64,000 nucleotides of DNA, taken from positions 1 to 64,000 of IMG/VR virus record IMGVR_UViG_3300042868_004707; one strand, 5' to 3'. Under the pieces are notes generated by a model. That model ran no database searches and had not been told where the DNA came from. It saw only the letters and a program-made list of their open reading frames with translations. Made by a program: the position numbers and the translations under genes. The DNA is from a virus. Numbering within the stretch: the stretch's first letter is position 1; each line of letters starts with the position of its first letter. Shown here piece by piece: positions 10,234 to 57,903 of this stretch.

Positions 10234-10524
10234 ATGGCAAAGTTATTAGGAAACCGCATCTATTTAGAGATGCCAAAGAAAGAAGAGAGTAAGCTTATTG
10301 TAGATGAGAATACAAAAGAAGCATTACAGAAAGAACTACTTAAGAAAATGAGTAGATTGAAAGTGCACAGTGTAGGAACAGCTATTACAGATCCAGATCT
10401 TGTTATTGGTTGTGAAGTGTTAGTAGATCCTACAGCATTGAGAGATAAAACATTAATCATTCCTTTATCAGAGAATGAAGATGTTATGTTAGTTTCTATA
10501 TTTGACATTGTACATATTTGGTAA
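10234..10524 (+). CDS. GroES-like co-chaperonin
   Basis: KLLGNRIYL...LIV...KVHSVG...LVIGCEVLV...DIV pattern; 96 aa. Confidence 0.65.
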   Translation: MAKLLGNRIYLEMPKKEESKLIVDENTKEALQKELLKKMSRLKVHSVGTAITDPDLVIGCEVLVDPTALRDKTLIIPLSENEDVMLVSIFDIVHIW

Positions 10525-10525
10525 T

Positions 10526-11281
10526 ATGGAATATCCTTTCATTAGTTGCAAATGTATAACCTATGGAAGAGTAGATACTCTGGAGGAAGCTATTCAAAGT
10601 TTCCTCCTACAAGAGTATCCAGGTAAGAAAGAACTTATTATAGTTAATGACTACCCTCTACAAAAATTGGTATACGATCATCCAGAAATAAAAATTTATA
10701 ATATGGATGAAACATTCTCTACTATTGGAGAGAAAGAAAACTATGCTATAGAGAGATGTTCTGGAGAACTTATTGCTGTATGGGATGATGATGATGTAGC
10801 ATTAAGCAATCATTTATCTAACATAGCTAAGTTTTGGAAACCAAACACTAATCTGTTACATTGGCAAAATGGTGTCTTCTATAATGAACCTAACATAACA
10901 CAATTGATGGCTCTTGGTAACTCAGGTATTGTATATAGCAAAAAAGCTTGGGAAGAAATTGGTAAGAGTCCAATAGAGAATGCTGGTGGAGATATGACAT
11001 TAGTTGTAGCTATTCATAACTTAGGAAGAGATAAAGTGGTATTAGCTGATCCTCCTAACGCAGAGTGTTCTTGGTTTTATATGTGGGGCGGTAGAGGATA
11101 TCATCAATCAGGCATGGGAACAGACACTGCAGATAGACCTAATGTTATACAAAGACATAGTCAATATGTAGAACAATTAAGAACAAAAGGATTGATTCCT
11201 ACAGGAGATGTTCATCTAAATCCTCATTGGAACAAAGACTATTCACAAATGCTAAAAGATTATATCAATGCAAATAAATAG
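10526..11281 (+). CDS. glycosyltransferase family 2
   Basis: ISCKCITYGR...AIQSFLLQEY..ELIIVND...IGEKENYAIERCSGELIAVWDDDD; start placed at ATG 10526. Confidence 0.88.
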   Translation: MEYPFISCKCITYGRVDTLEEAIQSFLLQEYPGKKELIIVNDYPLQKLVYDHPEIKIYNMDETFSTIGEKENYAIERCSGELIAVWDDDDVALSNHLSNIAKFWKPNTNLLHWQNGVFYNEPNITQLMALGNSGIVYSKKAWEEIGKSPIENAGGDMTLVVAIHNLGRDKVVLADPPNAECSWFYMWGGRGYHQSGMGTDTADRPNVIQRHSQYVEQLRTKGLIPTGDVHLNPHWNKDYSQMLKDYINANK

Positions 11282-11924
11282 TATATCAATAGATTCAACT
11301 AATTCTATTACAGAATTATGTATGCTTGGTGTGAAATATCCAACAGACAAATCTCCATATAACACTGATAAGAATTTACACAAACATGCTTACACTGCTA
11401 TATACAGTTTATTATTCTCTAACATTAGATATAATAATATTCGTGTAGGAGAGTTAGGTATATTAGAGAATCATTCAATGCTTTCTTGGAGAGAATTCTT
11501 TCCTAATGCTACATTATATGGATTTGAATGGTTTGATAGTAGATTAGATAAGGCAATTGGTGATAACATACCAAACTGTACTTATACTAAGATGAATGTT
11601 ACTGATTCAAAATCAATTGAGAAAGGATTAACTGATGCAGGGAGCAACTTTGATATACTAATGGATGATAGCACACATGTGTTTGAGGATCAGATTAAGT
11701 TTATCAATGTAGCATATAAACATTTAAAGCCTGGAGGGTTCTTAATTGTAGAAGATATATTCATTGATGCTAACGAAGAAGATTATTCAAAAGCAATAGA
11801 TCATTTATCAGATTATTTTTCTTCTTCTACATTTATAGTTGCTAATCATGATTTAAAACATTCTCCTGGATGGAATAATGATAAACTACTTTTATTACAT
11901 AGAAACAATAAGCCATGTTCTTAA
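11268..11924 (+). CDS. class I SAM-dependent methyltransferase (likely sugar O-methyltransferase)
   Basis: TDK...H.Y..IY, VGELGI, FDILMDDSTH, LKPGGFLIVEDI. Confidence 0.85.
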   Translation: MQINSISIDSTNSITELCMLGVKYPTDKSPYNTDKNLHKHAYTAIYSLLFSNIRYNNIRVGELGILENHSMLSWREFFPNATLYGFEWFDSRLDKAIGDNIPNCTYTKMNVTDSKSIEKGLTDAGSNFDILMDDSTHVFEDQIKFINVAYKHLKPGGFLIVEDIFIDANEEDYSKAIDHLSDYFSSSTFIVANHDLKHSPGWNNDKLLLLHRNNKPCS

Positions 11925-12454
11925 ATATTATAACACCGTCTTGTAGACCAGAAAATCTACATGTTATTTCTAAAAGTATAAATATCCCTAGAGATCAATA
12001 TAGATGGATAGTGGTATTTGATCTTTTAGATATGCCAGAAAACATTCCTGATAATTGTGAATGGTATGCTATTAAAGATGCTAATAGTACATCAGGTAAC
12101 GCTCAGAGAAACTTTGCTCTTGATTTAGTTACACATGGACATATATATTTCAATGATGATGATACAGTGATACATCCTGATCTATGGGAAAATATAAAGA
12201 ATGAATCTAATGAAGACTTTATTTCTTTTAAACAAGCTAACAAAGATGGAACAATTAGACTAGAAGGAACTAATATATCTGTAGGAAACATAGATAGTCA
12301 CAATTTTGTAACATCTGTAAATTGTGTAGGAGATACACGATGGGTACTAAATAGATATGATGCTGATGGTGTGTTTGCACATGAATGCTACCAGAAAGCA
12401 AAAAACAAATCATATATAAACAAAGTGCTATCAGTGTATAACACTCTTAGATAG
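11915..12454 (+). CDS. GT-A fold (GT2-like) glycosyltransferase
   Basis: IITPSCRPENL, WIVVFD, GNAQRNFALD, IYFNDDD, YDADG. Confidence 0.8.
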   Translation: MFLNIITPSCRPENLHVISKSINIPRDQYRWIVVFDLLDMPENIPDNCEWYAIKDANSTSGNAQRNFALDLVTHGHIYFNDDDTVIHPDLWENIKNESNEDFISFKQANKDGTIRLEGTNISVGNIDSHNFVTSVNCVGDTRWVLNRYDADGVFAHECYQKAKNKSYINKVLSVYNTLR

Positions 12455-12458
12455 AAAA

Positions 12459-12490
12459 CAAAAAAGCCTCCGTTATCTGGAGGCTTTATT
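12459..12490. terminator. bidirectional intrinsic terminator at the convergence of the two gene blocks
   Basis: A-run, AAAGCCTCC-GTTATCT-GGAGGCTTT, T-rich tail. Confidence 0.85.
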
Positions 12491-12647
12491 ATTTTGATAA
12501 TCTTTTAGCTTTCATAGGTTGTTGAGCACTTGTTCTCTTTCGAATAACATCTGCTTCTCTCATAAAATTTCCATTGATGGGTTTAGGAGGAGCTACCTTT
12601 GGAGCCATTCTAGGTTTACCAGATTTCTTAGCTTTGCCAGAAGTCAT
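12489..12647 (-). CDS. small basic protein (not in ORF track)
   Basis: MTSGKAKKSGKPRMAPKVAPPKPINGNFMREADVIRKRTSAQQPMKAKRLSK*. Confidence 0.65.
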   Translation of the reverse strand: MTSGKAKKSGKPRMAPKVAPPKPINGNFMREADVIRKRTSAQQPMKAKRLSK

Positions 12648-12651
12648 TGAT

Positions 12652-13056
12652 TTACTTGCAGCCATACTTACATTTCTTCATTGATGTTCCAGATTTAGCC
12701 TTCTTAACAGAAGCACCTTTCTTAGCTATAACACCACGTCCTTTAAGAATATCAGCTTTTGTAATCTTTCCATCTTTGTTAAGATCAGGAAATGATTTAC
12801 CATTTTTAGCTTTCATCATAGTTTTACCATTCTTAGCTGGTTTACCACCTACATATGTTCTTTTTGGTAAAGTAGCTGACTTCACTGGTAAATCACCTTT
12901 TTCAAAAGGAGGGCGAGTACCTTCACCACCCATGGTTCCTTTCTTACCTGTTGCAGGATCAACCATGTTTTTATACATGTCTACAGGAGAATTAGATTTT
13001 TTCTTTTGTACAGGTTTTTTAGGTGCTGTACTTTTTTTAGGTTTTGGTTGCATCAT
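12652..13056 (-). CDS. Lys-rich small protein, putative internal virion protein
   Basis: Very basic; repeated AKxG motifs; EF-hand-like DLNKDGKITKAD. Confidence 0.75.
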   Translation of the reverse strand: MMQPKPKKSTAPKKPVQKKKSNSPVDMYKNMVDPATGKKGTMGGEGTRPPFEKGDLPVKSATLPKRTYVGGKPAKNGKTMMKAKNGKSFPDLNKDGKITKADILKGRGVIAKKGASVKKAKSGTSMKKCKYGCK

Positions 13057-13058
13057 AA

Positions 13059-13205
13059 CTATTTCTTTTTAGATTTTATTTTACGTTCTTGTTTCAGCAT
13101 TGCAGCTGTAGGTTTCTTACCAGATCCTTTATTAGCTCTAATGTTATCCCAAAGTCCTCTTTGAGAAGTAGAACCATCTGCACGTTTAATCATTTGTTTT
13201 TTCAT
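13059..13205 (-). CDS. small basic protein (not in ORF track)
   Basis: MKKQMIKRADGSTSQRGLWDNIRANKGSGKKPTAAMLKQERKIKSKKK*. Confidence 0.7.
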   Translation of the reverse strand: MKKQMIKRADGSTSQRGLWDNIRANKGSGKKPTAAMLKQERKIKSKKK

Positions 13206-13207
13206 AA

Positions 13208-13480
13208 TTAACAATTCCATTTACGAAGAGCAAGAGCTTTTCTTGTAGGTTTACCATTGGGTTTTTTCATAGGACCTTTTACGCCACCCATTCTAGCACA
13301 AAAAGATTTTCTTCTATTAGCTGCTTTACTTCCAGGTTTTAACTTAGAAGGTTTAGTTGTAACAGCTTTTTTGAGCTTCGAACCTGGATTTGCAGCTCTA
13401 TATGATGCTATGCCTTTAGCGTTTAATCCTCCACTCTTACTTTTACCTTCAGAGCGAGTCCAAGCTGGTGTTTTTGCCAT
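13208..13480 (-). CDS. DUF6321-like basic phage protein
   Basis: AWTRSEGK..GGLNAKG.ASY...PGSKLK...RRKSFCARM...ALRKWNC. Confidence 0.75.
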   Translation of the reverse strand: MAKTPAWTRSEGKSKSGGLNAKGIASYRAANPGSKLKKAVTTKPSKLKPGSKAANRRKSFCARMGGVKGPMKKPNGKPTRKALALRKWNC

Positions 13481-13992
13481 TATTTCTTCTTATTAGATTT
13501 AGCAATTTTTTTAAATGTAAGAGCTAAAGTTTTAGCTTTTCCAGAACAACTTTTTTTTGTGATGGGTGTACATTTTCCTTCAGTACCTCTACGTTTGATA
13601 GAAGCTGCAGCTTTCTGCATCCATTTACCATCTTTAGCTATAGAGCCACCATTTTTCTTTTTACTCCAATCAGATTTAGATTGTTTAGAAGCTGCTTTAC
13701 TTGTACCACATCTTGTAGACTTAAAGTTAGGATCAGCTGTATCACAAGCAGGAACATCTTTTTGTTTATTTTGCTTTCTTTGAAACGCCTGATATTGCTC
13801 TTTAGTCATATTATCAGGTCTCTGTCTTGCGATAATAGAATCTTTCTTTCTTACAATATCAGCTCTTTTAACTGCTGTAATGCTGTCCATTTTTTTTCTA
13901 TTCTCTCTTGCTTCAATAAGTCTTTCAGCAGTAGTTTTCTTTTTAATAGTATCTACAGATGTACCTGTTTGAGCTTTCTTAATAGTTCTCAT
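13480..13992 (-). CDS. Lys-rich small protein
   Basis: Starts MRTIKKAQTG; KKNGG and IAKDG motifs. Confidence 0.75.
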   Translation of the reverse strand: MRTIKKAQTGTSVDTIKKKTTAERLIEARENRKKMDSITAVKRADIVRKKDSIIARQRPDNMTKEQYQAFQRKQNKQKDVPACDTADPNFKSTRCGTSKAASKQSKSDWSKKKNGGSIAKDGKWMQKAAASIKRRGTEGKCTPITKKSCSGKAKTLALTFKKIAKSNKKK

Positions 13993-13995
13993 GAC

Positions 13996-14343
13996 TTATT
14001 TCTTTTTAACAGATCCACCAGATTTCATTCTAGAAGCAGCACCTCTAGCACCCATAGCTCTATCAGCTCTCTTAACCATTCTCTTCTCAACTCTTTCAGC
14101 TCTTTCTGGATTATTTTCTTTGATTCTAGAAAGTCTTTTTTGTTGTCTTGGATTTTCTTTAACAACTTTAGAACCAATAGATCCACCAGTTTGTTTTTTA
14201 TCCAATCCAACAGGCATTTTACTTTTACCTTTATTTATTTTATCTGAAAGTTTTTTAACTTTTGGTAATATTCTTTCTATAGAATCTCTTTCTTTGCTAA
14301 TATTTTTTAATTGTAGATTAGCTCCTTTCTGTGCTTTTTTCAT
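13996..14343 (-). CDS. Lys-rich small protein
   Basis: Starts MKKAQKG; KQTGG and MKSGG motifs. Confidence 0.75.
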   Translation of the reverse strand: MKKAQKGANLQLKNISKERDSIERILPKVKKLSDKINKGKSKMPVGLDKKQTGGSIGSKVVKENPRQQKRLSRIKENNPERAERVEKRMVKRADRAMGARGAASRMKSGGSVKKK

Positions 14344-14345
14344 GA

Positions 14346-14720
14346 TTATTTCTTTTTAGAGATTTTCATTCCTTTCTTAGCCATCTTTGTAGCACCAAGT
14401 TGTTTATCTTTGGTAAGAGAAGCTTTTCCTTTAGCACCAGCTAATGCTTTCTTTTGAACCTTTGTGAATGCTCCTTTAGGATCTACAGGACCAACTCTTT
14501 TGTTAGAAGCTTTAAGTGCAGATAAAGAACCACCATTCTTCATTTTCTTTTTTAGGTTTTCCATTTTAGTTTTGAACTCTGCCTCTGTTTTTCTTTTTTT
14601 ATTTGTAAGATTAAGCTTAGCATTATCAATAGAATCTTTACTTTTTCTTAATTTTTCAAATATAGGTCTTGGATCAGAATATTTCACTGTTCCATTTTGT
14701 GCCTTTTTAATTGTTGCCAT
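14346..14720 (-). CDS. Lys-rich small protein
   Basis: Starts MATIKKAQNG; MKNGG and MAKKG motifs. Confidence 0.75.
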   Translation of the reverse strand: MATIKKAQNGTVKYSDPRPIFEKLRKSKDSIDNAKLNLTNKKRKTEAEFKTKMENLKKKMKNGGSLSALKASNKRVGPVDPKGAFTKVQKKALAGAKGKASLTKDKQLGATKMAKKGMKISKKK

Positions 14721-15268: not shown

Positions 15269-15844
15269 TTATCCAATATTAAATATAGAAAAGTTTACAG
15301 ATGGTGATAATGGTCTTGTAGGACTTGTTCCAGCTGCAGTTGTTAAAAGTCTCATTCCTGTAACTGCTGACCACCAATAAAACTTAATATATTGTCCAGC
15401 TGTTAATTCTATTGTATCTGATAATCTTCCTAATGTTTGATCATTTTGTCCACCAGTAGTTGTAAATGTAAAAGCTGAGTTAGGTACAATTACATCATCT
15501 ATGGTAAACCAAATTGTTACATTATAAGGTGCTGATGCCCCTCCTGTAAAACTGAGTTGAGCAGCAAAATCTAAATAATAAGTTCCTGTATTTATAACAT
15601 TAATTCTATTATCAGGACCTAATGTAAACCCATTAGCTTGTTGAGTGCTATTAAGTCTTACTTGATTAGCTGTAGTTGCTCCACCATTAGTTTGTGTTGT
15701 AGTATCAAAAAAAGTAGCAGAATATAAAGTTGTAGGAGTAGGAAGTTTACTTTCTACAAATTGATCAAGATTTAATTCTCCTTTATATCCTTGTGCAGGA
15801 TTAGTTCTTTTTTCCCAAAGGGTAGGTTTAATGAATGTTGGCAT
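15269..15844 (-). CDS. putative fibre/spike protein with C1q/TNF-like beta domain
   Basis: INVINTGTYYLDFAAQL...IELTAGQYI pattern; N-terminus shared with 16131-16751. Confidence 0.55.
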   Translation of the reverse strand: MPTFIKPTLWEKRTNPAQGYKGELNLDQFVESKLPTPTTLYSATFFDTTTQTNGGATTANQVRLNSTQQANGFTLGPDNRINVINTGTYYLDFAAQLSFTGGASAPYNVTIWFTIDDVIVPNSAFTFTTTGGQNDQTLGRLSDTIELTAGQYIKFYWWSAVTGMRLLTTAAGTSPTRPLSPSVNFSIFNIG

Positions 15845-15846
15845 AA

Positions 15847-16131
15847 TTATTCTAATGTTATTTCGAATGTTATTACACTCGTTGTTTTAATTGATTTACT
15901 CATATCTATTCTCATCTTAAACATGTTACAAAACTTAAGAATTTCTTCTATAAGCATATTGTTATACATTGGATGACTTGTTGCTATTCTGAATCTGTAA
16001 GACTCTGATAGTTTTGTTATTTCAAGACTACATAGTTCATCTACAGAAGAGATAACACCTTCTAAATGTGCAAGAAAAACCTCATCGTTATCTTGCATCA
16101 CTTTAGGAAAATGTTTTCTATTTATCTCCAT
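15847..16131 (-). CDS. hypothetical protein
   Basis: 94-aa ORF packed between neighbours. Confidence 0.7.
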   Translation of the reverse strand: MEINRKHFPKVMQDNDEVFLAHLEGVISSVDELCSLEITKLSESYRFRIATSHPMYNNMLIEEILKFCNMFKMRIDMSKSIKTTSVITFEITLE

Positions 16132-16751
16132 TAGTTATACACTCTAATTTCTATGAAAGTACCGTTTAAACTATTATTACTAGGGGACGAAGCAAGTGAA
16201 AGAGTGTATAAATCTATTAAATTTTCTTGCTGATACCTAGTAGTATATGTTCTAGGGGTTAAAGGATCTCCTTGGTCATATGGAGTTGCCATTATAACAC
16301 TTGTCTTTGCTCCAGTAAATAAATTATTAGAACCAATAGAGTAAGCACCTATATCAATATATTCAAAAAAAATGTTGCCAATAGTGTTTTCTAATACTGT
16401 TACTACTGGTGCTGCGTCACTATAATATAAAGTAGCATCTTCACCCCAACTATTTGGTGTTGTACCTGTAGCTATAAACTTAGTACCTACTTCATTATTA
16501 GGAGCTCCTACATTAGTCCAATCAGGATTACCTGATATAATCTCATCAATTATATATGTAACACCTATTGTTAATAAGCCAGAACTTACAAATACATTAC
16601 TATTATCTCCACCACTCTGTGTTAAAAAAGCTGTGAACACTTTATATGTAGGAACAGGTATTTTACTCTCTATAAATTGATCTAGATTCAACCATTCTTT
16701 ATATCCTTTTCTAGCTTTTTCCCAAAAACCAGTTTTAATGTATGTAGACAT
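16131..16751 (-). CDS. putative virion fibre/decoration protein
   Basis: YKVFTAFLTQSG...APVVTVLENTIG...IEIRVYN; N-terminus shared with 15269-15844. Confidence 0.55.
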   Translation of the reverse strand: MSTYIKTGFWEKARKGYKEWLNLDQFIESKIPVPTYKVFTAFLTQSGGDNSNVFVSSGLLTIGVTYIIDEIISGNPDWTNVGAPNNEVGTKFIATGTTPNSWGEDATLYYSDAAPVVTVLENTIGNIFFEYIDIGAYSIGSNNLFTGAKTSVIMATPYDQGDPLTPRTYTTRYQQENLIDLYTLSLASSPSNNSLNGTFIEIRVYN

Positions 16752-16758
16752 AATGTTT

Positions 16759-17172
16759 TTATGACAATGTTAATAAATATTTTGTTTTAGCTGCTTCTCC
16801 TGATAATGCATCTGCTAGATTACATACATCATGGAAACCATTCTTCTCACCATACATCTTTAAACTTGATGCAAACTTCATAAGATCTGATACACATTGT
16901 TCAGGTTTGCAATTTGTAAGAGGTTCTATTTTATAAAGACCAGGTCTTTTACCTGTATATCCCATAATCTTTTCTACCACACCATCTTTGAAATCATGTA
17001 CGTAATCATACAATGCACCAAGAGCTTGATGCTCTGCATAACTGGTTGTTTGCCAATGTAGCAGATGTAATTGCTCATGAAAATATGTAAGCTTTGCAGC
17101 TATAGATTCTAATGAAAGATCCATAACTGCTTTACTTGCCATATCGTTTGGAAATAATGATAACTCAGCCAT
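16759..17172 (-). CDS. ferritin/Dps-like protein (DUF5856-like)
   Basis: HLLHWQTTSYAEHQALGALYD...DGVVEKIMG...KTKYLLTLS. Confidence 0.8.
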   Translation of the reverse strand: MAELSLFPNDMASKAVMDLSLESIAAKLTYFHEQLHLLHWQTTSYAEHQALGALYDYVHDFKDGVVEKIMGYTGKRPGLYKIEPLTNCKPEQCVSDLMKFASSLKMYGEKNGFHDVCNLADALSGEAAKTKYLLTLS

Positions 17173-17174
17173 AA

Positions 17175-17378
17175 TTAAGTTGTGGTTGTAGTTGTTGTAG
17201 TTGGAGCTACAGTGGTAGTAGTGGTAGTAGTATAATTACAACACTCGTATGCTGGAATCTCTTTCCATTTTCCTACTTTTGGCTTATTTTTTCTAAGGAT
17301 TAAGCTTCCTGCAACTATACGTCCTGAACCATCAAAACGAACAAATGCTTTCAAAGGCCTTGTATTAATTGTACTCAT
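17175..17378 (-). CDS. small protein with C-terminal poly-Thr tail
   Basis: LKAFVRFDGSGRIVAGSLILRK...CCNY-T7-VAP-T8*. Confidence 0.8.
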   Translation of the reverse strand: MSTINTRPLKAFVRFDGSGRIVAGSLILRKNKPKVGKWKEIPAYECCNYTTTTTTTVAPTTTTTTTT

Positions 17379-17406
17379 TTTTATTAAATTTTATTTGTTA
17401 ATATTA

Positions 17407-18117
17407 TTAAACTAATTTGACATATGACCATATAAAATTATTACTAGGTCTTTTTTGTTGTCTACACCACTCACCTATACTTGTAGGTGATACATTTTCT
17501 TTTGTTCCTGCTTCTTGTAAACAAGAATAAGTAACTAAAAGTACTCTGTCTTTATTATATTTATATACTTTTTTTCTTCTAGGATTAACCCAACCTTTTT
17601 CTATTCTCTCTTTGCTTTTTAAAGATATGATTTGTTTTGATTTATCGCTATGTTTTTTGCCTTTATTTCCAGAAACTTGTCCTAAATGTGAATCAGATAA
17701 TTTTTTTAAATGTTCATCTGTATACACATTAACTTTTCCTTTGTTCCAAGGAGTTCTTCCAGTAGGTCCTTTTCCACCATCAGTACTATTTAATATAGTA
17801 TAATTTTTTTGACTATAATTAGAAATTAATTGTTTTTCTTTTAAAAAAGCTTCTTCTTCTGTTAAGTTACTTTCAATAACTTTAAACATAACCTTTAATT
17901 TCTTTTCTTCTATAACATCATTCATCCAAATATATAATGGAAAATCTATATATCTTTTATAAGTTCTATTTATAGAATGTTTATATGCTCTTTGATTATA
18001 ATCAGAAGTAACTCCTATATAAATATTTTTATCAATCTCATCTTCAGAATACATTGTATAAACACAATATGGTTTATCTGGATAATCAAGATTTACTAAA
18101 CCATTATATTCTTTCAT
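17407..18117 (-). CDS. free-standing GIY-YIG homing endonuclease with NUMOD repeats
   Basis: YCVY...IYIGVTSDYNQR, NSTDGGKG, GKKHSDKSKQIIS, KKVYKYN...YSCLQEAG. Confidence 0.85.
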   Translation of the reverse strand: MKEYNGLVNLDYPDKPYCVYTMYSEDEIDKNIYIGVTSDYNQRAYKHSINRTYKRYIDFPLYIWMNDVIEEKKLKVMFKVIESNLTEEEAFLKEKQLISNYSQKNYTILNSTDGGKGPTGRTPWNKGKVNVYTDEHLKKLSDSHLGQVSGNKGKKHSDKSKQIISLKSKERIEKGWVNPRRKKVYKYNKDRVLLVTYSCLQEAGTKENVSPTSIGEWCRQQKRPSNNFIWSYVKLV

Positions 18118-18118
18118 A

Positions 18119-19135
18119 TTAATAATGTAAGTTATATTTTTCTTTTATTTCGTTTAGCTTAGTGGCATAAAACCACGTACAAAACTTTTTAGAATTCTCA
18201 TCATTCAATACAGTTTCTAAATATGGATCTTTTGTCGGATCAGTTCCCATGTGGTATTTACCTTTATAGAAAGCTGGGTATCCATTTCCTGTTTCAGAAA
18301 CTATTCCTGCGTTATGAAAGATTGTGTGAGACTCTAATTTTACAATAGGATCTGTTGCCCATGCAAAATCTAATTCTCTCACCACTTTTGTCTCTTGATC
18401 TCTTAACCAGATGTTCCATAAGACAGCCCACATATCTGCACACCAACTTTGAAACCCTGAGTTTTCATCTTTAAAGAATTCTCTATTTATCTTTTGTAAA
18501 TAGGTTCTTATAAGAATACAATCATTCATCACCTTACTCCAGAAATCAGCATCTACATTCTTTAATAAATATTGTGCTCCTCCTGAATGATCATTATTAG
18601 CTTCAGCTATCTCTCTACTGATTCCAATAACACTTGCTATTTCTGCAAGAACATCTCTACCTTTATACTCTTCTAGTTTCTCTGGTAATACTTGATGTAT
18701 CTTACTATCAAAATATTTAGCGTTGATGTAGCTATTTGTGTCTGATAGATAGTTTATATCATCTTCTAAAAACTGATCTACATTAAAGTCTTTCATAAAT
18801 AGAATGTCAGAATCACAATAAAAGATTGCTTTCTCACTTAGTTCTGGATGTTTCTTAAAATGTTTCCAAAGAACATATGGTCTAAGTACAGGAATGTATA
18901 TTCCTATTAATCTATTTAAGTTGTCTTCATCTTCATAGAAATGAAATTCAGCTTCTGGATACAACTCTTCGATCTGTTTCCACTTATCTCTATTCTCTCT
19001 TCCTTTAGGAGTGAATATAAGATTGATTGCTTTGTCAGAATGTCCTATCTCTTTTAGACTTTCCATCCATAAGTTTACTTGCCATGTGTAATAGATGTCA
19101 CTTGGACAACATTGAACAAATTTTAAATCTTTCAT
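18119..19135 (-). CDS. GT-A glycosyltransferase resembling peptide O-glycosyltransferases (GT95/GT96-like)
   Basis: YYTWQV, YIPVLRPY, FYCDSDILF (DxD), GGAQYLL, SWCADMWAV, IFHNAG. Confidence 0.7.
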   Translation of the reverse strand: MKDLKFVQCCPSDIYYTWQVNLWMESLKEIGHSDKAINLIFTPKGRENRDKWKQIEELYPEAEFHFYEDEDNLNRLIGIYIPVLRPYVLWKHFKKHPELSEKAIFYCDSDILFMKDFNVDQFLEDDINYLSDTNSYINAKYFDSKIHQVLPEKLEEYKGRDVLAEIASVIGISREIAEANNDHSGGAQYLLKNVDADFWSKVMNDCILIRTYLQKINREFFKDENSGFQSWCADMWAVLWNIWLRDQETKVVRELDFAWATDPIVKLESHTIFHNAGIVSETGNGYPAFYKGKYHMGTDPTKDPYLETVLNDENSKKFCTWFYATKLNEIKEKYNLHY

Positions 19136-19174: not shown

Positions 19175-19378
19175 TTAGTTTTCTGGGAATGGTGTATATT
19201 CAATCCTTTCTAACTCGTTAAGTTGGTCGTAAATTTCTGAAAAGTTTGGGTCGTTTAAGACCTCTAAACCAACTATCCATCTATCACTACCATCTTTTAC
19301 AAATAGTAATTCAGATGCGTTATTCTTATAACCATTCAATGCGTTATATTGCTCTGTATTTGGGTGTAGTACTAACAT
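19175..19378 (-). CDS. hypothetical protein
   Basis: 67-aa ORF coupled to upstream gene. Confidence 0.7.
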   Translation of the reverse strand: MLVLHPNTEQYNALNGYKNNASELLFVKDGSDRWIVGLEVLNDPNFSEIYDQLNELERIEYTPFPEN

Positions 19379-19379
19379 A

Positions 19380-20150
19380 TTATAAAGAATTTAAATAAGT
19401 ATCAAAAGTATTTACAAAAGCAGTGTTTTCTGTAATCATAGAAGCACCCATTGCATACATAGATATTTTAGCGTTCACATAAATTGCTCCTTGTCTTAAA
19501 ATCCATTGGTTTGCATTTGGTAAGCCTGTTGACAACAATGTTCTATTTTCTCCTACCGAAGCATTATATAAAGAAACAGCAGTTGAACTTGTACGATGTA
19601 TAGACTTCATTTCTTTAGTTGCCGTATACGTAAAAGCTGAATTTAAAATATTTACTGCTCCTGAATTAATTTTATGTGTTGTATATACTCCTAGTCTAAT
19701 GTTATTTGTATCAATTGAATTACCCTCAATTCTTTGCCCTAAACTTCCAGAAAATAAATACATAAATCTACTTGCGTTATTAGTAACGTAGTTAGTACTT
19801 TGAGTACTTGGATTGAAATTTGTATCAATGTAACTTGATGTTCCGTTACCCATAAATCCTTCATTAGCTGTGAAGGTTGGTGTATTTATTAAAGTTGATT
19901 GGTTTAATGTAGGTGCTTTCCAATTTAATGTAGCAAAATTTGAACCTCCATCATTTGCAAAGATATACAACACATCAAGTTTAGTCCATATCCCACCTGA
20001 CTTTAAGGCTAAAACTAAAGTATTTTGTTTTATTCGTTGAGAAACTGAAGGCAATGTATATCCTAACGCAACAGCTCTATTCAACACAGCTTGATAATCT
20101 GCATCAAATGAACTATTTTGTCCTTGTCCACAACTTAATAGCGTTAACAT
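19380..20150 (-). CDS. putative virion protein with concanavalin/LamG-like beta domain
   Basis: LKSGGIWTKLDVLYIFA...GNGTSSYIDTNFNPST pattern; Asn/Thr/Ser rich. Confidence 0.55.
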   Translation of the reverse strand: MLTLLSCGQGQNSSFDADYQAVLNRAVALGYTLPSVSQRIKQNTLVLALKSGGIWTKLDVLYIFANDGGSNFATLNWKAPTLNQSTLINTPTFTANEGFMGNGTSSYIDTNFNPSTQSTNYVTNNASRFMYLFSGSLGQRIEGNSIDTNNIRLGVYTTHKINSGAVNILNSAFTYTATKEMKSIHRTSSTAVSLYNASVGENRTLLSTGLPNANQWILRQGAIYVNAKISMYAMGASMITENTAFVNTFDTYLNSL

Positions 20151-49020: not shown

Positions 49021-49887
49021 TTATTTGTAACTAATTTGACTAGGAGTTATCAAAAATTGTGAAACAAGATGAGTAGTACTTGATGAGTCTAAGATGTGAC
49101 GAATCTTCAATTCTTTTGCTCTTAATGTTGCTTTCTTAAAGCTTCTCAATCCGTAGTCCATGTTCTCTTGATTCACTTCTTTATCTATTGACATAGACTC
49201 ACATGATGATCTAAATAATGGAACCTGAGAACTCTTCTCTAAAGCCCAGAATGTATTATACTGATAGAAGTTATCACTCTTTGTATAAGTGATTGTTTTA
49301 CTGTCTGTATTGTATATTGGATATTGTCCATATGCTTGTAAGTTATGAAGTGGTTTTGCAACAAGATTTAATATTCCAGAACTCTGTTGTCCATTATATA
49401 GAATAGCTTTATTAAACCATTTGTCGTTTGTTTCAATTTTTAAATTACTATCATATGCTTCATATGGATTTCTTATGTATTCATACGCTTTTGTATAGTC
49501 TTTTACGTTCTGTAATATCTCATCTTGGAATTGATAAGCAAATGGATATTCTATTACGTATGGTTTTATACTTCCATAAAAATAATTATAGATTTGCGTG
49601 TTGGTTAAATGTTTCCACAAACAAGCAGTTTTAGTTTGCTTATATCCACTCTTAGAATATTCTAAATAAGGAATTTCTCTTAATTGAAAGGTTTTTTCAA
49701 ACCCACATTCTCCATTTGATACTAGTCTTACATTTGTCACTTTATTATCTACTAGATATGTCCTACCTTTAATTAACTGTTTTCTACTTACATTTTCATC
49801 TAGTAGATTATTATAATTATCGTAAACACTGAAAGGTCCTGTATTAGGACCTGTCTGTGTTATCTTTATTGTAATTTCTCTTTTCAT
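49021..49887 (-). CDS. C-terminal part of tail stabilisation (muzzle) protein with extra small N-terminal domain
   Basis: Start at ATG 49887, overlapping the upstream TAA; LWKH...YFYG..PYVIEY...FNKAILYNGQQSSGILNL. Confidence 0.65.
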   Translation of the reverse strand: MKREITIKITQTGPNTGPFSVYDNYNNLLDENVSRKQLIKGRTYLVDNKVTNVRLVSNGECGFEKTFQLREIPYLEYSKSGYKQTKTACLWKHLTNTQIYNYFYGSIKPYVIEYPFAYQFQDEILQNVKDYTKAYEYIRNPYEAYDSNLKIETNDKWFNKAILYNGQQSSGILNLVAKPLHNLQAYGQYPIYNTDSKTITYTKSDNFYQYNTFWALEKSSQVPLFRSSCESMSIDKEVNQENMDYGLRSFKKATLRAKELKIRHILDSSSTTHLVSQFLITPSQISYK

Positions 49888-52800
49888 TATATAGTAGTGG
49901 TTGTTGTTGTGGTTGGACAATCTATAACTTCTGTACAAGGATCCCCACAAGCTTGAATAAATATATATCCATCAGAATCTGTTTCAAATGATATAGATTC
50001 GTATTGTGCACATAACGTTACAAATGTATCTGAATATTCATCATAATGAGTGACATTTGATCCATCTGTCCAGATTAAAACTACGCTACCATAAATAGTT
50101 ACATTGTAACAATATGTATCAGGAACAAATGTTGTAGTGGTAGTTGTTGTACCACAATTATAAATTCCTACAATCACTCCTGATTCCACTTGATAAACAG
50201 TGGTATCAAACGCACTTTCTTCTGTAAAATAAAAACCATCAGGAACTAATGTACAATCTGTAGAATATGCATCAAGATAAACAATTTGTCCTATTTCTAA
50301 TTCATTATATGCTACAGATATTGTTTCTATATTTATGTAAGACCAATCTTCATTTGTATTCAAATACTCTATTCCTAAACAAGCATCTTCAAAACTTCCT
50401 GTTGTATCTAATATATTTGTATCACAACTTTCAGAATATCCTGTTATAAATAAATTATCACTGGAAAGATTACCTCTTTGACATATTGTAGTGGTAGTTG
50501 TAGGAGGAACAGTTATTATAGCATCTCCTTCAAGATTACAATATGTTTCAATAATTGTTCCTTCTAATTCACAATCTAATGCTAATGTACTAGTTGTTGT
50601 TGTAGTAGGTAAAGGTATAGGTGCAGCACTTGTAGTGGAGGTTGTTGTTGGTTTAGTTCTATTTATCTCTCCTACTAAAGCAGTAAATGTAGCTTCTCCA
50701 TTTACAGAATCACAACATCCATTAAGTCCTGTATAAAAGAAATTATTTTCTGCTATGTAAAAATTAGGAACATAGCTATGGAAAGAAACCCAAGATTTTG
50801 TATTAAAATTAAATGATATTGTAAATGATCTGTTACAAAAAAATTCAGCATCATCTAAATAAACTACATCTCTAAAAACAACATCATTAATTATGTTTTC
50901 AACATAAAATTCTTTATTAACTTCGTCATATTTAATATCTTCATCTAAAGGCACATAATCTAATTTTGTAATTATCACTCTATCAAATTTAGCATCAAAC
51001 ACTCCATGTAAACCTATTCCATTAAAATTGTTATCAGTGTCTACATTTGGAAAATATTTTAATATTTTAAATGGTAAATTGTCTGTCATAAATCTATTTA
51101 CACCAGAACCAAATGCTGTCATATCTACAGCTTCTGTTCCTTGTATAAGAAATATTTGCCCACGTTTAGCATCAATGGTTATTTGTCCTTGTGGAATCTT
51201 TAATAAAAACTTATTCTGTGTCCCTACATATCCAAGATCTGTTTCAGCAAAATCAATAGGAGGTGCACTAAACATGTTAGGGTTACCTACATATGCTGCT
51301 TGTGGATTACTTGTATCAATAGTTAATAAGTTATTATACATTAATGATTTGTTTTCAAACCTAGCAAGGATTGCTCTGTTTTGAATACCATCTAATGATA
51401 TAAGATTTCCATAGTTTTGTGGAAAATCATAAAAAGAAAGAGCTCTGTATATTAACCAGTTATTCACTTTATTATCTGCATCTGTAAATTGCTTTTCAGA
51501 ATAAATAGTTCTAAAAGGATAATACGTAGAACAGATTGCATTCCAATCAATAGGAAGATTCGTAAATGAATTTTCTTTATTTTGTTTTGAGAAAGTTACA
51601 TTATAATAATATGTATTATCTTGCTCAATAGGAACAAATGATTGTTGCACCCATGCATCAGGAATACTTGTAGATACATGTGGCCAGAAATCACCTTCTC
51701 TATTATTGAATGCTTGTCTAAGATCTAAATTATAAGAACTCTCACAATAGAAATTAGGAACACCATATGCAAACATATAAAAATATCCATCATAATAAGT
51801 TAACTCACTAGGTGAATTAATACTAGTGTATTGTGTTGTATCATTAGGACAATCAAAATTATGAGCTTTATATGAAATAAAGTTTACTAATTGTTGGTTT
51901 GCAGCTGTTGCATTACGTAATACACTTCTTGCAGAATGCCAGTATTTTGGATATGCAATGTTTCCAATTGCATCATAAAACACATCTGAATCATCAGGAG
52001 CATTCACTCTATTTTGTAAAAAGAAAGGAAGTTTTGTTTTAAATGCAAATTTACCAATGAATGTATCTCCTCCAAATATAGTGGATTCTGTAGGAGTAAA
52101 TTGTGAAAATATCACTTGAAACCCTGTATCCACTTTTTCATATGAATATATTTGACCCCATTGTCCAGGAACAATATTTTTAATTGATCCATAATATGAA
52201 ACAACATTAATATCTTGTTCTCTTTGTGGAGTGGCACAAGCATTAGTTCCTCCAATTGTAAATCTAGAATTATCTTCAATTAAAGAATTCCCTAAGTAAA
52301 CTAATGAATCTGTTTTACTAGGAAAAGGAAGACTATCATCTGTTTTTAAATAGACAGAAGTTTCTCTATTGTAATTATTAATATTATTATCATCACCAAC
52401 GTTTTGTAATCCAGGAATTAAATATCTTTTTATATCAAGATTTCTTTGTTTGATTCCTAAATTATTGTATACAGGAGAATGATAACTGTAACTAGCTATA
52501 GAATTAAATGAGTATGCATAGTTTTTTCTAGTTATACCATTAATGTATATTTCTAAATAAGCTTGATAAGCTGCAAACAATGCAACAATATCTCCTCCAG
52601 CAATGTTTGAAGAACTTTGTAATGCAACTTGTTGAGCTTCTTTACTTAATAATCTATACTTAGCATTGTCTCTCACTTCAACAAAGTGAGCTCTACCACC
52701 ACCATACATTACATTCTCAAGCTTTAGTACATCACCTAAGAAAGGTTGTCCAAAAGATGTTTCTGGAGAATTAAATATTTGTCTGTTTGTAAGAGATTCT

Positions 52801-55211
52801 GATAATGGAGCTAGAGGTTCTTCTTCTTTACAACCTGGATCTCTTACTTCAGAATCTTTTGAAAAGTTTTTTCTTTTTCCTCTACCTAATGTAGGAAAAG
52901 TTCCAACTCTTACATATATTTTAAGATTATGACCAGAACCTATCCAAGGACTTTCTATAGGTCCTTCTACAGCATCATCAAAATATACAGTTATACCAGC
53001 TCTACCATTTTCAGCTCCAACAGTCCAAATATCATAATTTGCATATCTAGAATAAGCTACACATTTTTTATTATCTGGAACATATCCTGGAATTCCTGGT
53101 GTAATTTGATAAGAAGCATATCCATAAGCTACAGGACCAGAATTCCATCTTACTTGTTCCACTTTATTAAATACACCTTCTCCTAAGAATGTAGGTTTTA
53201 TAATTGAACAAATTTTTAAAGGATTGTTTTCAAGATGAAGTTCATATATTTTTCTTATTATTTCTTTGTTTGTATTACAATCAGTATATCTAACTGCTGT
53301 ATATGGACCTAATTCATCTTCATTATTAAAACTACGAACAATGATATCAAAAGATTCACATGACTCAAAATATGCATTATTATTAGCATTTAAAAATGCA
53401 TCTTCACTAAGATCATTATATGGATAGTTTGGATAGTAATATGTTTCTTCTTCTTTAACATAGCTTCCTACATTACGAAGAATACCTTTAGCAACAATAG
53501 ATCTATTTGTACTTCTATCACCACGAACAATTTTATATCCTACAATATCATCTTTCTCTTCATTTGTTAAATTAGACTCTCTGATTAATTGTATAACCTG
53601 TTCGTTGTTAATTTTTATACCAATAGGATAAATTGCACTAGATTGTTGCATTTCCACTTGATATCTATCTGAAACAATTACAGGAACAGAAGATTCAAAT
53701 GAAGGACTAATTAATATATCAGGAAACTTATGATGTCTAATTTGTTGATTAGCTAAGTCTCCCCAAACTTCTACATTACAAGGATAAGTTTCTGTAGATT
53801 CCCAATAAGCAAATTGACCAAATTGATATGGTCCTTTATAACTAGGCTCATCAGAGAATTGTGGAGATATTCCTATTACAGAAGCTGTATTATATATTTT
53901 CCAATAAGGAGCAGAAGTTCCTTCTCCTATAAAATCAGGATTGGTGTTTGGAACATCTGGTTGACTTACTATCTCATTGTTTGTTTGTTTTCTACCTGGA
54001 ATATGAAAACCATCTGTTTGTTTTCCATTTCTTAATAAGAATACAATCTCAAGTGCATACACTTCATCACGCAAGTACCCACGTAAGTTTGTTGCATTCA
54101 CTTCATCTGCATAACTTTCTGTAGAAGGTATTCTCCAACTTTCCCATTGAAGAGTTATTTGATTAGCTATTTTTTGATAATTCACTCTATCTATTGTAGA
54201 TAGTTTATCCCAAACTAAAACATCTTGCACTGCAGTTAAATCTCCTGCTACATCATAGTATGGAAACTTTTCAAATATATCATTTATAGAAAGTCTTATA
54301 TCAGTTTTACTTTGTCCTGTATAAGTTATTTGTTGTGTAAAATTATCTATGAAGTATGTTCCAACAAGTTCAACTGATGATATACCATTAATTGTTTTTA
54401 TTACAGCTAAGTTATAATATTGATACTTTCCTGTTGTATCTAAATTAGTTATATCAATAACTATTGACTTTCCTACAGGATAGTTAAAATTTACTGTAGT
54501 GAAGTCTGGATCTGCAATAGGTGTAGGATTTGTTATAGAATAGAAAGAAGTGTATGGACTACCTTGTGCATCTGTATATTGTATACCAAATTGATAAGTA
54601 CCTGCAATTAAATCTCCTCCTGAAATTACATCTATAATTTCTAATTGAGGAATATTAAAATTAGGTTGTATTTTTAATTTATTACAATCTAATTCATCTA
54701 ATGTAAGTACACTACAAGAATTAGGAATAATCTCTGTTACATAAGGCACATTATCAATGTCCATATATCTTCTAGGATTAAATCCATCTGTCCAATAAAT
54801 CTCTGTAGAGCAGTTTGTTATTCTATGAACAACTTTAGGTATAGGATGGTCAATGTTAAAGTTTAAACAATTAGCATTTACAATTGTTCTGTAAATACAA
54901 TCATTATTAATCATCTGTCCTATTTCACTTTCTCCTGTAGAAGAGTTAGCTAAAAAGAAAATAAACTTGTTTCTTTCTTGTATAAAATGACTTCCAATTA
55001 AGGAATATCCGTTAGGGAAACTAATACATAATTCATTCCCTGGCTCATTCTGGTAGTTTACAGAATTAGCATCAAAGTTTTCAACAGCAGCATTCAATGC
55101 ATATGTAAGTGTGCCTGGTTTAATCTGATTAACAGATTGATCCATGTTCAGTCCTACAGTGGCATTATTATACTCCTGCTTAATGTTTCCTTGTTGTTGT
55201 TCTTCAGCCAT
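49887..55211 (-). CDS. crAss-like tail stabilisation (muzzle) protein, N-terminal part, with Thr-rich C-terminal extension
   Basis: GLNMD, IYWTDGFNPRR, GYLRDEVY, FGGDTFI, YGNLISL, GYVGTQ, FTISFNFNTKSWVSFHSY; lies after the tail tubular gene. Confidence 0.8.
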   Translation of the reverse strand: MAEEQQQGNIKQEYNNATVGLNMDQSVNQIKPGTLTYALNAAVENFDANSVNYQNEPGNELCISFPNGYSLIGSHFIQERNKFIFFLANSSTGESEIGQMINNDCIYRTIVNANCLNFNIDHPIPKVVHRITNCSTEIYWTDGFNPRRYMDIDNVPYVTEIIPNSCSVLTLDELDCNKLKIQPNFNIPQLEIIDVISGGDLIAGTYQFGIQYTDAQGSPYTSFYSITNPTPIADPDFTTVNFNYPVGKSIVIDITNLDTTGKYQYYNLAVIKTINGISSVELVGTYFIDNFTQQITYTGQSKTDIRLSINDIFEKFPYYDVAGDLTAVQDVLVWDKLSTIDRVNYQKIANQITLQWESWRIPSTESYADEVNATNLRGYLRDEVYALEIVFLLRNGKQTDGFHIPGRKQTNNEIVSQPDVPNTNPDFIGEGTSAPYWKIYNTASVIGISPQFSDEPSYKGPYQFGQFAYWESTETYPCNVEVWGDLANQQIRHHKFPDILISPSFESSVPVIVSDRYQVEMQQSSAIYPIGIKINNEQVIQLIRESNLTNEEKDDIVGYKIVRGDRSTNRSIVAKGILRNVGSYVKEEETYYYPNYPYNDLSEDAFLNANNNAYFESCESFDIIVRSFNNEDELGPYTAVRYTDCNTNKEIIRKIYELHLENNPLKICSIIKPTFLGEGVFNKVEQVRWNSGPVAYGYASYQITPGIPGYVPDNKKCVAYSRYANYDIWTVGAENGRAGITVYFDDAVEGPIESPWIGSGHNLKIYVRVGTFPTLGRGKRKNFSKDSEVRDPGCKEEEPLAPLSESLTNRQIFNSPETSFGQPFLGDVLKLENVMYGGGRAHFVEVRDNAKYRLLSKEAQQVALQSSSNIAGGDIVALFAAYQAYLEIYINGITRKNYAYSFNSIASYSYHSPVYNNLGIKQRNLDIKRYLIPGLQNVGDDNNINNYNRETSVYLKTDDSLPFPSKTDSLVYLGNSLIEDNSRFTIGGTNACATPQREQDINVVSYYGSIKNIVPGQWGQIYSYEKVDTGFQVIFSQFTPTESTIFGGDTFIGKFAFKTKLPFFLQNRVNAPDDSDVFYDAIGNIAYPKYWHSARSVLRNATAANQQLVNFISYKAHNFDCPNDTTQYTSINSPSELTYYDGYFYMFAYGVPNFYCESSYNLDLRQAFNNREGDFWPHVSTSIPDAWVQQSFVPIEQDNTYYYNVTFSKQNKENSFTNLPIDWNAICSTYYPFRTIYSEKQFTDADNKVNNWLIYRALSFYDFPQNYGNLISLDGIQNRAILARFENKSLMYNNLLTIDTSNPQAAYVGNPNMFSAPPIDFAETDLGYVGTQNKFLLKIPQGQITIDAKRGQIFLIQGTEAVDMTAFGSGVNRFMTDNLPFKILKYFPNVDTDNNFNGIGLHGVFDAKFDRVIITKLDYVPLDEDIKYDEVNKEFYVENIINDVVFRDVVYLDDAEFFCNRSFTISFNFNTKSWVSFHSYVPNFYIAENNFFYTGLNGCCDSVNGEATFTALVGEINRTKPTTTSTTSAAPIPLPTTTTTSTLALDCELEGTIIETYCNLEGDAIITVPPTTTTTICQRGNLSSDNLFITGYSESCDTNILDTTGSFEDACLGIEYLNTNEDWSYINIETISVAYNELEIGQIVYLDAYSTDCTLVPDGFYFTEESAFDTTVYQVESGVIVGIYNCGTTTTTTTFVPDTYCYNVTIYGSVVLIWTDGSNVTHYDEYSDTFVTLCAQYESISFETDSDGYIFIQACGDPCTEVIDCPTTTTTTTI

Positions 55212-56677: not shown

Positions 56678-57405
56678 TAACTATTTGGTTTTGAGTTAGG
56701 TGCTTGTCCATCTATTCCTTCTGCACTCATGTCTGTTTTAAGATTGAAGTATGTAGATAAAAGTTTTTGAGATGTAAGTTCTAATGTTTGCTGTTCCAAG
56801 TATCCAGGAAGAGGAAACTCTTTATCTAATGGATTCTTACATATCTCATCTAATGTATACTCTGGAGATCCACATCCACATTCTGGATACATGATTTCAT
56901 TATTTACATCTTCTTCAAATAAAGCTACAAATCGAATTGATTTAAGTAAAGGATTGTTTACATATAGATATCCATTAGATATCCAGAAGTATTCTTCTTT
57001 CTTGATTATAGGAAGCTTTAATAGATTGATGTATCTGTTTACAGTGATCTCTTTTAATTTCTTTCCTGTACCACCCATAGCATTAATAGAATAAACTCCT
57101 TGTATTACATATTGGTAATTACCTTCTGATATACGTGGGAGTTTAAGTTTTGTTCTTGCAATAGTACATTCATCTACATAGTTACAACATTCAGAGATGG
57201 GTACTTCTATCATCTCTAAACATGGAATAGTAGTGAACAATGTGTCAGTTGCCCAAAGTTTTCTAAGATTGGTTTCTCTTTTAATAAGTAATAAAGCATT
57301 GTTTCTAATCTCAGAAGCAATTGCACGGTCAGTTATAAGAGAGTCAGTCGATAATATTTTATGAACTGAACGAACGTCACTAACAAGTTTTCTTAATGTT
57401 GCCAT
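56677..57405 (-). CDS. crAss-like conserved structural (ring) protein
   Basis: IPCLEMIEV..CC...IARTKLKLPRI, NGYLYV, ALFEE, LDKEFPLP; synteny with IHF-like and tubular genes. Confidence 0.65.
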   Translation of the reverse strand: MATLRKLVSDVRSVHKILSTDSLITDRAIASEIRNNALLLIKRETNLRKLWATDTLFTTIPCLEMIEVPISECCNYVDECTIARTKLKLPRISEGNYQYVIQGVYSINAMGGTGKKLKEITVNRYINLLKLPIIKKEEYFWISNGYLYVNNPLLKSIRFVALFEEDVNNEIMYPECGCGSPEYTLDEICKNPLDKEFPLPGYLEQQTLELTSQKLLSTYFNLKTDMSAEGIDGQAPNSKPNS

Positions 57406-57899: not shown

Positions 57900-57903
57900 A
57901 ACT

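Follow-up and report, generated by a model that had tools for sequence, protein, structure and literature searches.

A gene at positions 18119–19135 (minus strand) of the analyzed DNA encodes a phage glycosyltransferase that is repeatedly and tightly coupled, in this phage and in distantly related ones, to genes for proteins with poly-threonine (poly-Thr) tags, and the explanation we favor is that the enzyme O-glycosylates these tags in the cytoplasm. The DNA, referred to here as the window, is the first 64 kb (64,000 nucleotides) of the complete 115,249-bp virus record IMGVR_UViG_3300042868_004707, which has direct terminal repeats. An earlier reading of the same DNA, the original prediction, had noticed a glycosyltransferase inside the virion module and Thr tracts on virion proteins, and had proposed that the two form an O-glycosylation system. 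The observation was confirmed. The core of the proposal, a phage glycosyltransferase coupled to poly-Thr tags on virion proteins, was supported by the fold of the enzyme, its co-occurrence with the tags, the insertion found between the enzyme gene and a tagged neighbor, and the domain fusions of the enzyme family.

The open reading frame (ORF) 18119–19135 encodes a soluble protein of 338 amino acids (aa) that matched phrog_4417 (E 2e-56), a family with no function assigned in PHROG. The family is large, with 2,744 matches among 90% clusters and 781 clusters at 50% identity. The protein gave no match in Pfam (E ≤ 0.1) or in NCBIfam, and nothing usable was found among the PDB sequences either with the single protein or with the profile of an alignment of 66 homologs. 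An AlphaFold2 model built on these 66 homologs reached a predicted local distance difference test score (pLDDT) of 96.3 and had a GT-A fold, with a single Rossmann-like alpha/beta/alpha nucleotide-sugar-binding domain. Foldseek returned 268 matches in the PDB at E ≤ 0.001; among the matches listed all were GT-A enzymes, and glycogenin (GT8) came first (E 7e-7). The VIA-align Z scores were 14.4 for glycogenin (234 aligned residues, root-mean-square deviation 3.9), 14.2 for AgtA (the Skp1 alpha-galactosyltransferase), 13.7 for LgtC, 13.5 for the catalytic domain of UGGT, 13.4 for WbbM, 12.8 for GlyE, 12.6 for LARGE1, 12.5 for 3tzt, about 12 for GT6 enzymes, and 11.2 for the PBCV-1 capsid glycosyltransferase A64R. 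GlyE, labelled as a glycosyltransferase in the structure output, acts on a serine-rich-repeat adhesin. The nearest folds are those of retaining GT-A enzymes, several of which act on proteins or protein-linked glycans, and no DNA glycosyltransferase was present among the structural matches listed by Foldseek and VIA-align. A retaining mechanism is suggested by these folds, all of which are retaining. The model has a GT8-type three-dimensional core. The GT8 sequence family was absent among the families listed for ORF 18119–19135 and for the 66 and 76 relatives in two homolog alignments.

The two alignments were also used to examine residue conservation. D108, D110, Y80, Y136, F257, H274, and K291 were invariant in the first (n = 66), and the equivalent DxD residues were likewise invariant in the second (n = 76). 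D108 and D110 belong to the motif FYCDSDILF (D108-S-D110), and the original reading of CDSD as the DxD motif of a GT-A enzyme was therefore borne out by both the modelled fold and the alignments. The other motifs that had been pointed out, YYTWQV, YIPVLRPY, and SWCADMWAV, were present together with DSD, and several of their residues were invariant or nearly so in the 66 and 76 homologs. No hydrophobic segment, membrane segment, or signal sequence was found in the protein, and because there is no hydrophobic segment, the enzyme should work in the cytoplasm. Its gene lies within a long minus-strand late operon, and the earlier placement of the enzyme inside the virion module was considered fair.

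The candidate acceptors are equally distinctive. Runs of at least five Thr occurred in exactly seven ORFs of the whole 115,249-bp genome. All seven are minus-strand ORFs located from 17 to 64.6 kb, and six of them have such a run no more than 13 residues from the C-terminus. This agrees with the earlier count of six further genes with Thr tracts besides the small gene downstream of the enzyme. At a Thr frequency of 6.2%, only 1.3e-4 runs of seven Thr (T7) are expected by chance. The codons within the runs are mixed (39 ACA, 33 ACT, 14 ACC, and 1 ACG), which indicates that the runs are not simple slippery DNA repeats and that selection acts on the protein.

All seven ORFs can be placed on the minus strand as follows. 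The small Thr-tailed protein downstream of the enzyme gene (17175–17378, 67 aa) ends CCNY-T7-VAP-T8-stop and is a candidate acceptor with a putative virion role. The largest tagged protein (49887–55211, 1774 aa) matches virion structural protein families of PHROG, carries four Thr runs in its C-terminal Cys-rich modules, and ends CP-T7-I. Next come a 93-aa protein (59294–59575) with the tail T7-VSP-TTTSTTT, a Cys-rich protein of 390 aa (59595–60767) in which six Thr runs form interdomain linkers, a 127-aa protein (60775–61158) that ends CCSA-T7-LI, and a 120-aa protein (62331–62693) that ends NP-T7-V and is encoded beside the tail-fiber gene at 61171–62310. The last is a 396-aa protein that ends ACI-T6-SSAPAS-T5-STLIP; its gene occupies 63455–64000 of the window, starts beyond it at 64645, and lies three genes downstream of the major head gene. 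The major head protein of this phage has no Thr tag.

Most of the Thr runs in this phage come directly after Cys or Cys-Cys, as in ECCNY-T7, VCCP-T7, ECCSA-T7, DCP-T7, NCG-T7, and ACI-T6, and these Cys-preceded runs are located at 17175–17378, 49887–50150, 60096–60506, 60775–60804, and 63455–63523. In Bacillota phages no Cys was seen before the Thr runs. The preceding Cys may be a lineage-specific recognition or disulfide feature.

The arrangement of the enzyme gene and the small Thr-tailed gene was compared across 80 loci of close relatives, whose enzymes are 65–100% identical. In the window the two genes are separated by a free-standing homing endonuclease of the GIY-YIG/NUMOD3 type (17407–18117, minus strand, 236 aa), which matched PF01541 (27.1 bits) and PF07460 (27.4 bits), both above the cut-off, and phrog_314 (E 1.1e-16). 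Only 7 of the 80 relatives have a GIY-YIG gene directly after the enzyme gene; elsewhere the small Thr-tailed gene usually follows at once. This sporadic presence at a fixed site indicates an insertion, as had been proposed. An ortholog of the small Thr-tailed gene was present in 74 of the 75 loci with enough downstream sequence, and in 50 of them it starts within 50 nucleotides of the end of the enzyme gene. In one relative contig (L043), an 85-aa ortholog even overlaps the stop codon of the enzyme gene, and its tail, T5-S-T-SS-T8-ATP-T7, is unlike that of the window in length. When any Thr-run ORF was counted, 79 of the 80 relatives had one within 5 kb of the enzyme gene and 68 within 100 nucleotides.

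The same coupling was observed in distant phages. By tblastn at a cut-off of E 1e-3, the family was detected in 77 of 50,697 phage records, all at less than 37% identity. In all eleven enzyme-carrying phage groups considered (the ten described below and the lineage of the window, a small set that was chosen by us and counted without phylogenetic correction), Thr-rich tails occur on capsid, tail-tube, or fiber-like proteins, usually encoded by an adjacent gene. In Enterococcus phage phiFL1A the enzyme gene lies between the tail-tube gene and the tail chaperone genes. The tail tube ends ...T5-S-T6-SS-T7-QASSK and the capsid-position protein ends T5-KP-T5-KP-T7-QG. No further ORF of that genome has a T run, and no second glycosyltransferase is annotated in it. 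In Lactococcus phage 1706 the enzyme gene directly follows the tail-tube gene, whose product ends V-T10-HHD, while orf10, annotated as 'head maturation protease', ends K-T9-HHD and the holin orf3 has an internal T7. The tail tube of Lactococcus phage bIL285, where the enzyme gene follows the head gene, ends K-T9-RHD. In Lacticaseibacillus phage R9.1 the enzyme gene follows the capsid-position gene, and the capsid-position and tail-tube-position proteins end T7-SHV and T9-SHV. Clostridium phage phiCTP1 has the enzyme gene between the tail-tube-position gene and the chaperones, with C-terminal Thr-run tails on ORF4, ORF11, and ORF18, the last being the tail-tube-position protein.

The enzyme gene of Enterococcus phage Planchet follows the capsid gene, with a Thr-rich ORF without annotation between the two. 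In Staphylococcus phages F1 and TPWB06 the tail tube ends GET9P or DGT9P and is followed by a Thr-rich extension ORF and then by the enzyme gene. Lactobacillus phage Lpa804 has the enzyme gene outside the main structural module with two Thr-tailed ORFs directly upstream, and in Chryseobacterium phage MA9V-3 it lies in a block of genes without annotation, with two upstream proteins that have long Thr/Ser tracts. In Lactobacillus phage SAC12B, where the enzyme gene is also outside the main structural module, there is no T6 run, and the directly upstream gene ends (TTV[KA]P)x7.

Three features of these tails deserve separate mention. The tag of SAC12B (gene at 19422–19979 of locus L131) consists of seven copies of TTV[KA]P and is not a homopolymer; judging from this sequence, the acceptor motif may be a Thr-Thr pair within a repeat spaced by proline, which recalls the repeats of extensins or mucins. 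The Thr-rich ORFs directly after a capsid or tail-tube gene in Planchet (L132, 9923–10150), F1 (L139, 2548–2925), and TPWB06 (L140, 2660–2926), which are separate small genes or carry no annotation, may be frameshift extensions of the major protein. The residues past the Thr run are constant by host genus (HHD/RHD in Lactococcus, SHV in Lacticaseibacillus, and QG/QASSK in Enterococcus phiFL1A), and this constant end of the tail may matter for recognition or termination.

Five phages without the enzyme, whose tail tubes are 45–56% identical to that of bIL285, served as controls. None of the five had a Thr tail, and no T6 pattern was found anywhere in their genomes. The co-occurrence of enzyme and tails, which the original prediction had proposed to examine across related phages, was therefore non-random (11/11 groups with the enzyme versus 0/5 related phages without it). 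Under a strict T6 criterion, the comparison was 10 of 11 carriers versus 0 of 5 controls (p about 0.001 by a hand-computed Fisher estimate).

A reverse test started from the Thr tracts, with viral contigs picked solely by an (ACN)8 pattern; at 53 of the 80 listed loci, an ORF had a true T8 run. Of the 65 searchable contigs, which were mostly small fragments, 5 carried the enzyme, and in 4 of these 5 it abuts the gene with the Thr tract. The enzyme is therefore greatly enriched relative to the base rate of 0.15% (77 of 50,697 phage records), a figure taken from another collection.

Domain fusions connect the enzyme family to other glycosyltransferase and to methyltransferase domains. Longer members of the family contain fused GT2 (9), Glyco_transf_7C (5), GT6 (3), GT29, GT32, and GT25 domains, as well as several methyltransferase domains and a radical-SAM domain. 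The usual order in these fusion proteins is the family domain at the N-terminus and the other glycosyltransferases after it. Similar GT2 and methyltransferase domains are encoded on the plus strand at 10.5–12 kb of the window, where the original prediction had placed a GT2 gene, a methyltransferase gene, and a GT2-like gene. The first of these was confirmed as a GT2 glycosyltransferase (10502–11281; PF00535, E 1.7e-10) and is a candidate glycan extender. The second (11268–11924) resembles S-adenosylmethionine (SAM)-dependent methyltransferases and is a candidate glycan methylase, an assignment that came from PHROG (2.5e-13), with Pfam matches below the curated cut-offs. The third (11915–12454) is at best a putative GT2/GT43-like ORF, with matches at E 0.013–0.02, below the curated cut-offs, and its identity as a glycosyltransferase was not established. 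One fusion has the order GT2, methyltransferase, and phrog_4417-family domain, and its GT2 part is 28% identical to the GT2 at 10502–11281 (E 4e-9). This match to the N-terminal GT2 domain of a fusion ties the GT2 of the window to the system. The window methyltransferase showed class-level similarity to the methyltransferase domains of the fusions (E 0.02–0.1), and its putative link to the system comes from fusions of the same enzyme class.

Together, these results make the following mechanism the most probable one. ORF 18119–19135 would be a cytoplasmic, metal-dependent (DxD) GT-A glycosyltransferase of a phage-specific family, and its acceptors would be the Thr-rich tracts on seven late proteins: the 1774-aa structural protein, the small Cys-rich proteins around the tail-fiber gene, and the 67-aa protein downstream of the enzyme. 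Late in infection, before or during assembly, the enzyme would transfer sugar from a nucleoside diphosphate (NDP)-sugar to the Thr hydroxyls of the disordered tags, in alpha linkage if it retains configuration like its nearest folds. Since no other glycosyltransferase is annotated in the small carriers, it is probably this enzyme that puts the first sugar on Thr. The GT2, and perhaps also the methyltransferase, may then elaborate the glycan, and the tags would become short mucin-like glycopeptide brushes on the particle. Such a coat might serve in adhesion, shielding, or mimicry, as the original prediction had suggested.

Several observations weigh against this explanation, in addition to the limits on the group counts and on the base rate given above. 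The small Cys-rich tagged proteins flank the tail-fiber gene, but their location in the virion is putative, and some of the Thr tracts in the window are interdomain linkers and not tails. In bIL285 the enzyme gene follows a capsid gene without a Thr tail. Thr runs that resemble internal linkers also occur in some near-complete phage contigs from which both the enzyme family and a GT2 are absent. LgtC and WbbM, whose acceptors are lipo-oligosaccharide and O-antigen, scored as well as the protein-modifying enzymes, and since these acceptors are not proteins, the fold alone does not identify the acceptor. Finally, our literature search found no paper that describes this family, reports a glycan on phages carrying it, or deals with poly-Thr tails paired with a glycosyltransferase in these phages.

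If the tags are glycosylated, a host enzyme or the GT2 at 10502–11281 could act first and the enzyme could only extend the glycan. This would fit with the activities of AgtA, GlyE, LARGE1, and UGGT, which are among the nearest folds and act on sugars already attached to protein, and with the further glycosyltransferase candidates of the phage and the frequent fusion of the family to other glycosyltransferase domains. However, phiFL1A and other small temperate carriers lack a second annotated glycosyltransferase. Accessory glycosyltransferases vary among the 11 groups, in which this family alone always accompanies the tags, and the order of domains in the fusions mostly places the family first. 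We consider a purely extending role unlikely. It is also conceivable, though we would give it rather little weight, that the acceptor is not a protein at all. The enzyme would then modify a host envelope polysaccharide, teichoic acid, or lipo-oligosaccharide for superinfection exclusion or receptor masking, or the phage DNA, while the Thr tracts would be bare linkers or spacers linked to the enzyme by shared late expression. The scores of LgtC and WbbM, the occurrence of Thr-rich linkers in phages without the family, and the position of the gene outside the main structural module in SAC12B and Lpa804 are in line with this possibility. On the other hand, a Thr-tailed gene directly adjoins the enzyme gene both in Bacteroidota phages and in phages of several Bacillota genera, hosts with wholly different envelopes, and even in SAC12B and Lpa804 the immediate upstream gene is Thr-tailed. 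In addition, relatives without the enzyme are also without tails, and the protein has neither a membrane segment nor a signal sequence and no listed structural match to a DNA glycosyltransferase. A DNA-modifying role in particular was rejected on the basis of these structural matches and of the small temperate carriers, which have no annotated hypermodification genes.

A third explanation is that the glycosyltransferase fold has been kept for a non-catalytic role, such as that of a chaperone that would bind the Thr tails during assembly. Nothing points to this directly, although the position beside the tail-assembly chaperone genes in siphoviruses would allow it. The DxD and several other residues are invariant in the homolog alignments, and so across hundreds of clusters at 50% identity, as is typical of an active enzyme, and the fusions to other sugar-handling enzymes also argue for catalysis, which makes a non-catalytic role highly improbable. 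All three alternatives are less likely than glycosylation of the tags by the enzyme because the adjacency of enzyme and tag spans hosts with quite different envelopes.

The surrounding genome gives some indication of the host and of the origin of the neighboring genes. The GC content is about 0.30. The only stretch with DNA similarity to an isolate phage, 19191–20110, is 79% identical to the tail ('YapH') gene of Flavobacterium phage elemo, and among isolates, the enzyme is matched best by a protein of a Chryseobacterium phage; from these two similarities, a host in the Flavobacteriia is likely. The stretch at 19191–20110 suggests an exchanged fiber module and a Flavobacterium-like host. The long late operon runs on the minus strand from the terminase, portal, and major head genes (66.7–74.3 kb) down to about 15 kb, and between the head genes and its distal end it holds large virion structural proteins, the tail-fiber gene, and fiber-like and lysis genes. 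Within the structural operon, a Cys-rich ORF at 57393–57950 has a C-terminus that, as judged by eye, is HNH/endonuclease-VII-like, and it may be a second mobile endonuclease.

Just downstream of the small Thr-tailed gene, 16759–17172 encodes a DUF5856 / Dps-like 'starvation-inducible' protein. Lactobacillus phage SAC12B also has an annotated Dps-like gene, and no link was established. The neighboring ORFs 15269–15844 and 16131–16751, for which no family match was found, have an N-terminal motif in common (MPTFIKPTLWEK / MSTYIKTGFWEK) and resemble paralogous fiber-like proteins. At the distal end of the operon (12489–14720, minus strand) there are small, extremely lysine-rich ORFs (58, 134, 53, 90, 170, 115, and 124 aa) that may encode basic internal or DNA-binding proteins.

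The family was found in phages of lactic acid bacteria, enterococci, staphylococci, clostridia, and Flavobacteriia. If the poly-Thr tags are glycosylated, sugar-coated virions would be far more common than thought. This would bear on how the immune system recognizes therapeutic phages against enterococci and staphylococci and on the pharmacokinetics of these phages, on the behavior of phages in mucus and dairy matrices, and on the reading of unmodelled cryo-electron microscopy density at the C-termini of capsid and tail-tube proteins. A small soluble enzyme with a tag of 7–10 residues would also offer a simple way to engineer glycans in the bacterial cytoplasm. The idea is directly testable in those carriers that have been cultured.

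Among known systems, the closest functional analogy would be the plant and algal hydroxyproline O-arabinosyltransferases (GT95; HPAT, PF23452) and the peptidyl-serine alpha-galactosyltransferases (GT96), which directly glycosylate repetitive tracts of hydroxy-amino acids. The original prediction had drawn this parallel from the order of the motifs. The motif order is indeed present and conserved, but kinship was not proven by the evidence at hand, namely a language-model lead (22 of the 30 nearest named clusters in the ESM Atlas carry PF23452) and one sub-threshold hidden Markov model match (a single one of the 142 relatives reaches E 0.013 against PF23452). HPAT gave no match in the protein itself, in its genome, or in five other carrier genomes, and DUF7164 (PF23741) gave none in the genome of the phage; the control genomes were silent in both cases, which makes these negatives weak. 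The relationship to GT95 and GT96 is thus only a lead. We put forward with some reserve, and lean somewhat against, the wider proposal that the family is a self-sufficient peptide-priming O-glycosyltransferase for bare tracts of about 7–10 Thr, distantly homologous to GT95/GT96, and that poly-Thr is a portable glyco-tag with which many Bacillota and Bacteroidota phages build mucin-like coats in the bacterial cytoplasm.

In terms of structure, the best matches were glycogenin, LgtC, GlyE, the xylosyltransferase domain of LARGE1, AgtA (GT77), and UGGT (GT24), with Z scores of 12.6–14.4 over 217–249 aligned residues, almost the full length of the protein. Like these enzymes, ORF 18119–19135 has its DxD at the end of a beta strand; several of them modify proteins or glycans linked to proteins, in the case of AgtA within the cytoplasm. 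In contrast to them, sequence identity is only 8–12%, and neither ORF 18119–19135 nor the 142 relatives match GT8 in Pfam. The chlorovirus PBCV-1 enzyme A64R is likewise a virus-encoded cytoplasmic GT-A glycosyltransferase, which glycosylates the major capsid protein. However, it comes from a virus of a eukaryote, the glycans concerned are atypical and N-linked, and it is a weaker structural match (Z 11.2) than the GT8-type enzymes.

The most direct precedent is found in the mycobacteriophages. According to passages in PMC12363180 and PMC12619734, which refer to Freeman et al. 2023, glycosyltransferases encoded by phages Che8, Corndog, and Myrna modify the phages' own particle proteins, the glycans lie at the C-termini of capsid and tail-tube subunits, and virion glycosylation lowers antibody recognition; as far as these passages say, phage-encoded virion glycosylation has been measured in mycobacteriophages only. 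The system described here is similar in that a phage glycosyltransferase is combined with Ser/Thr-rich C-termini, and in the Bacillota carriers the Thr tails are at the C-termini of capsid and tail-tube proteins as well. In contrast, the enzyme family differs by sequence (no Mycobacterium phage was among the 77 tblastn records at E ≤ 1e-3, a sequence-level comparison), the hosts are Bacteroidota and Bacillota, the tag is nearly pure poly-Thr, and in the window it is found on fiber-like proteins and large structural proteins and is absent from the major head protein. Phage self-glycosylation as such was therefore already known, and our data support its extension to a different enzyme family that is paired with a poly-Thr tag.

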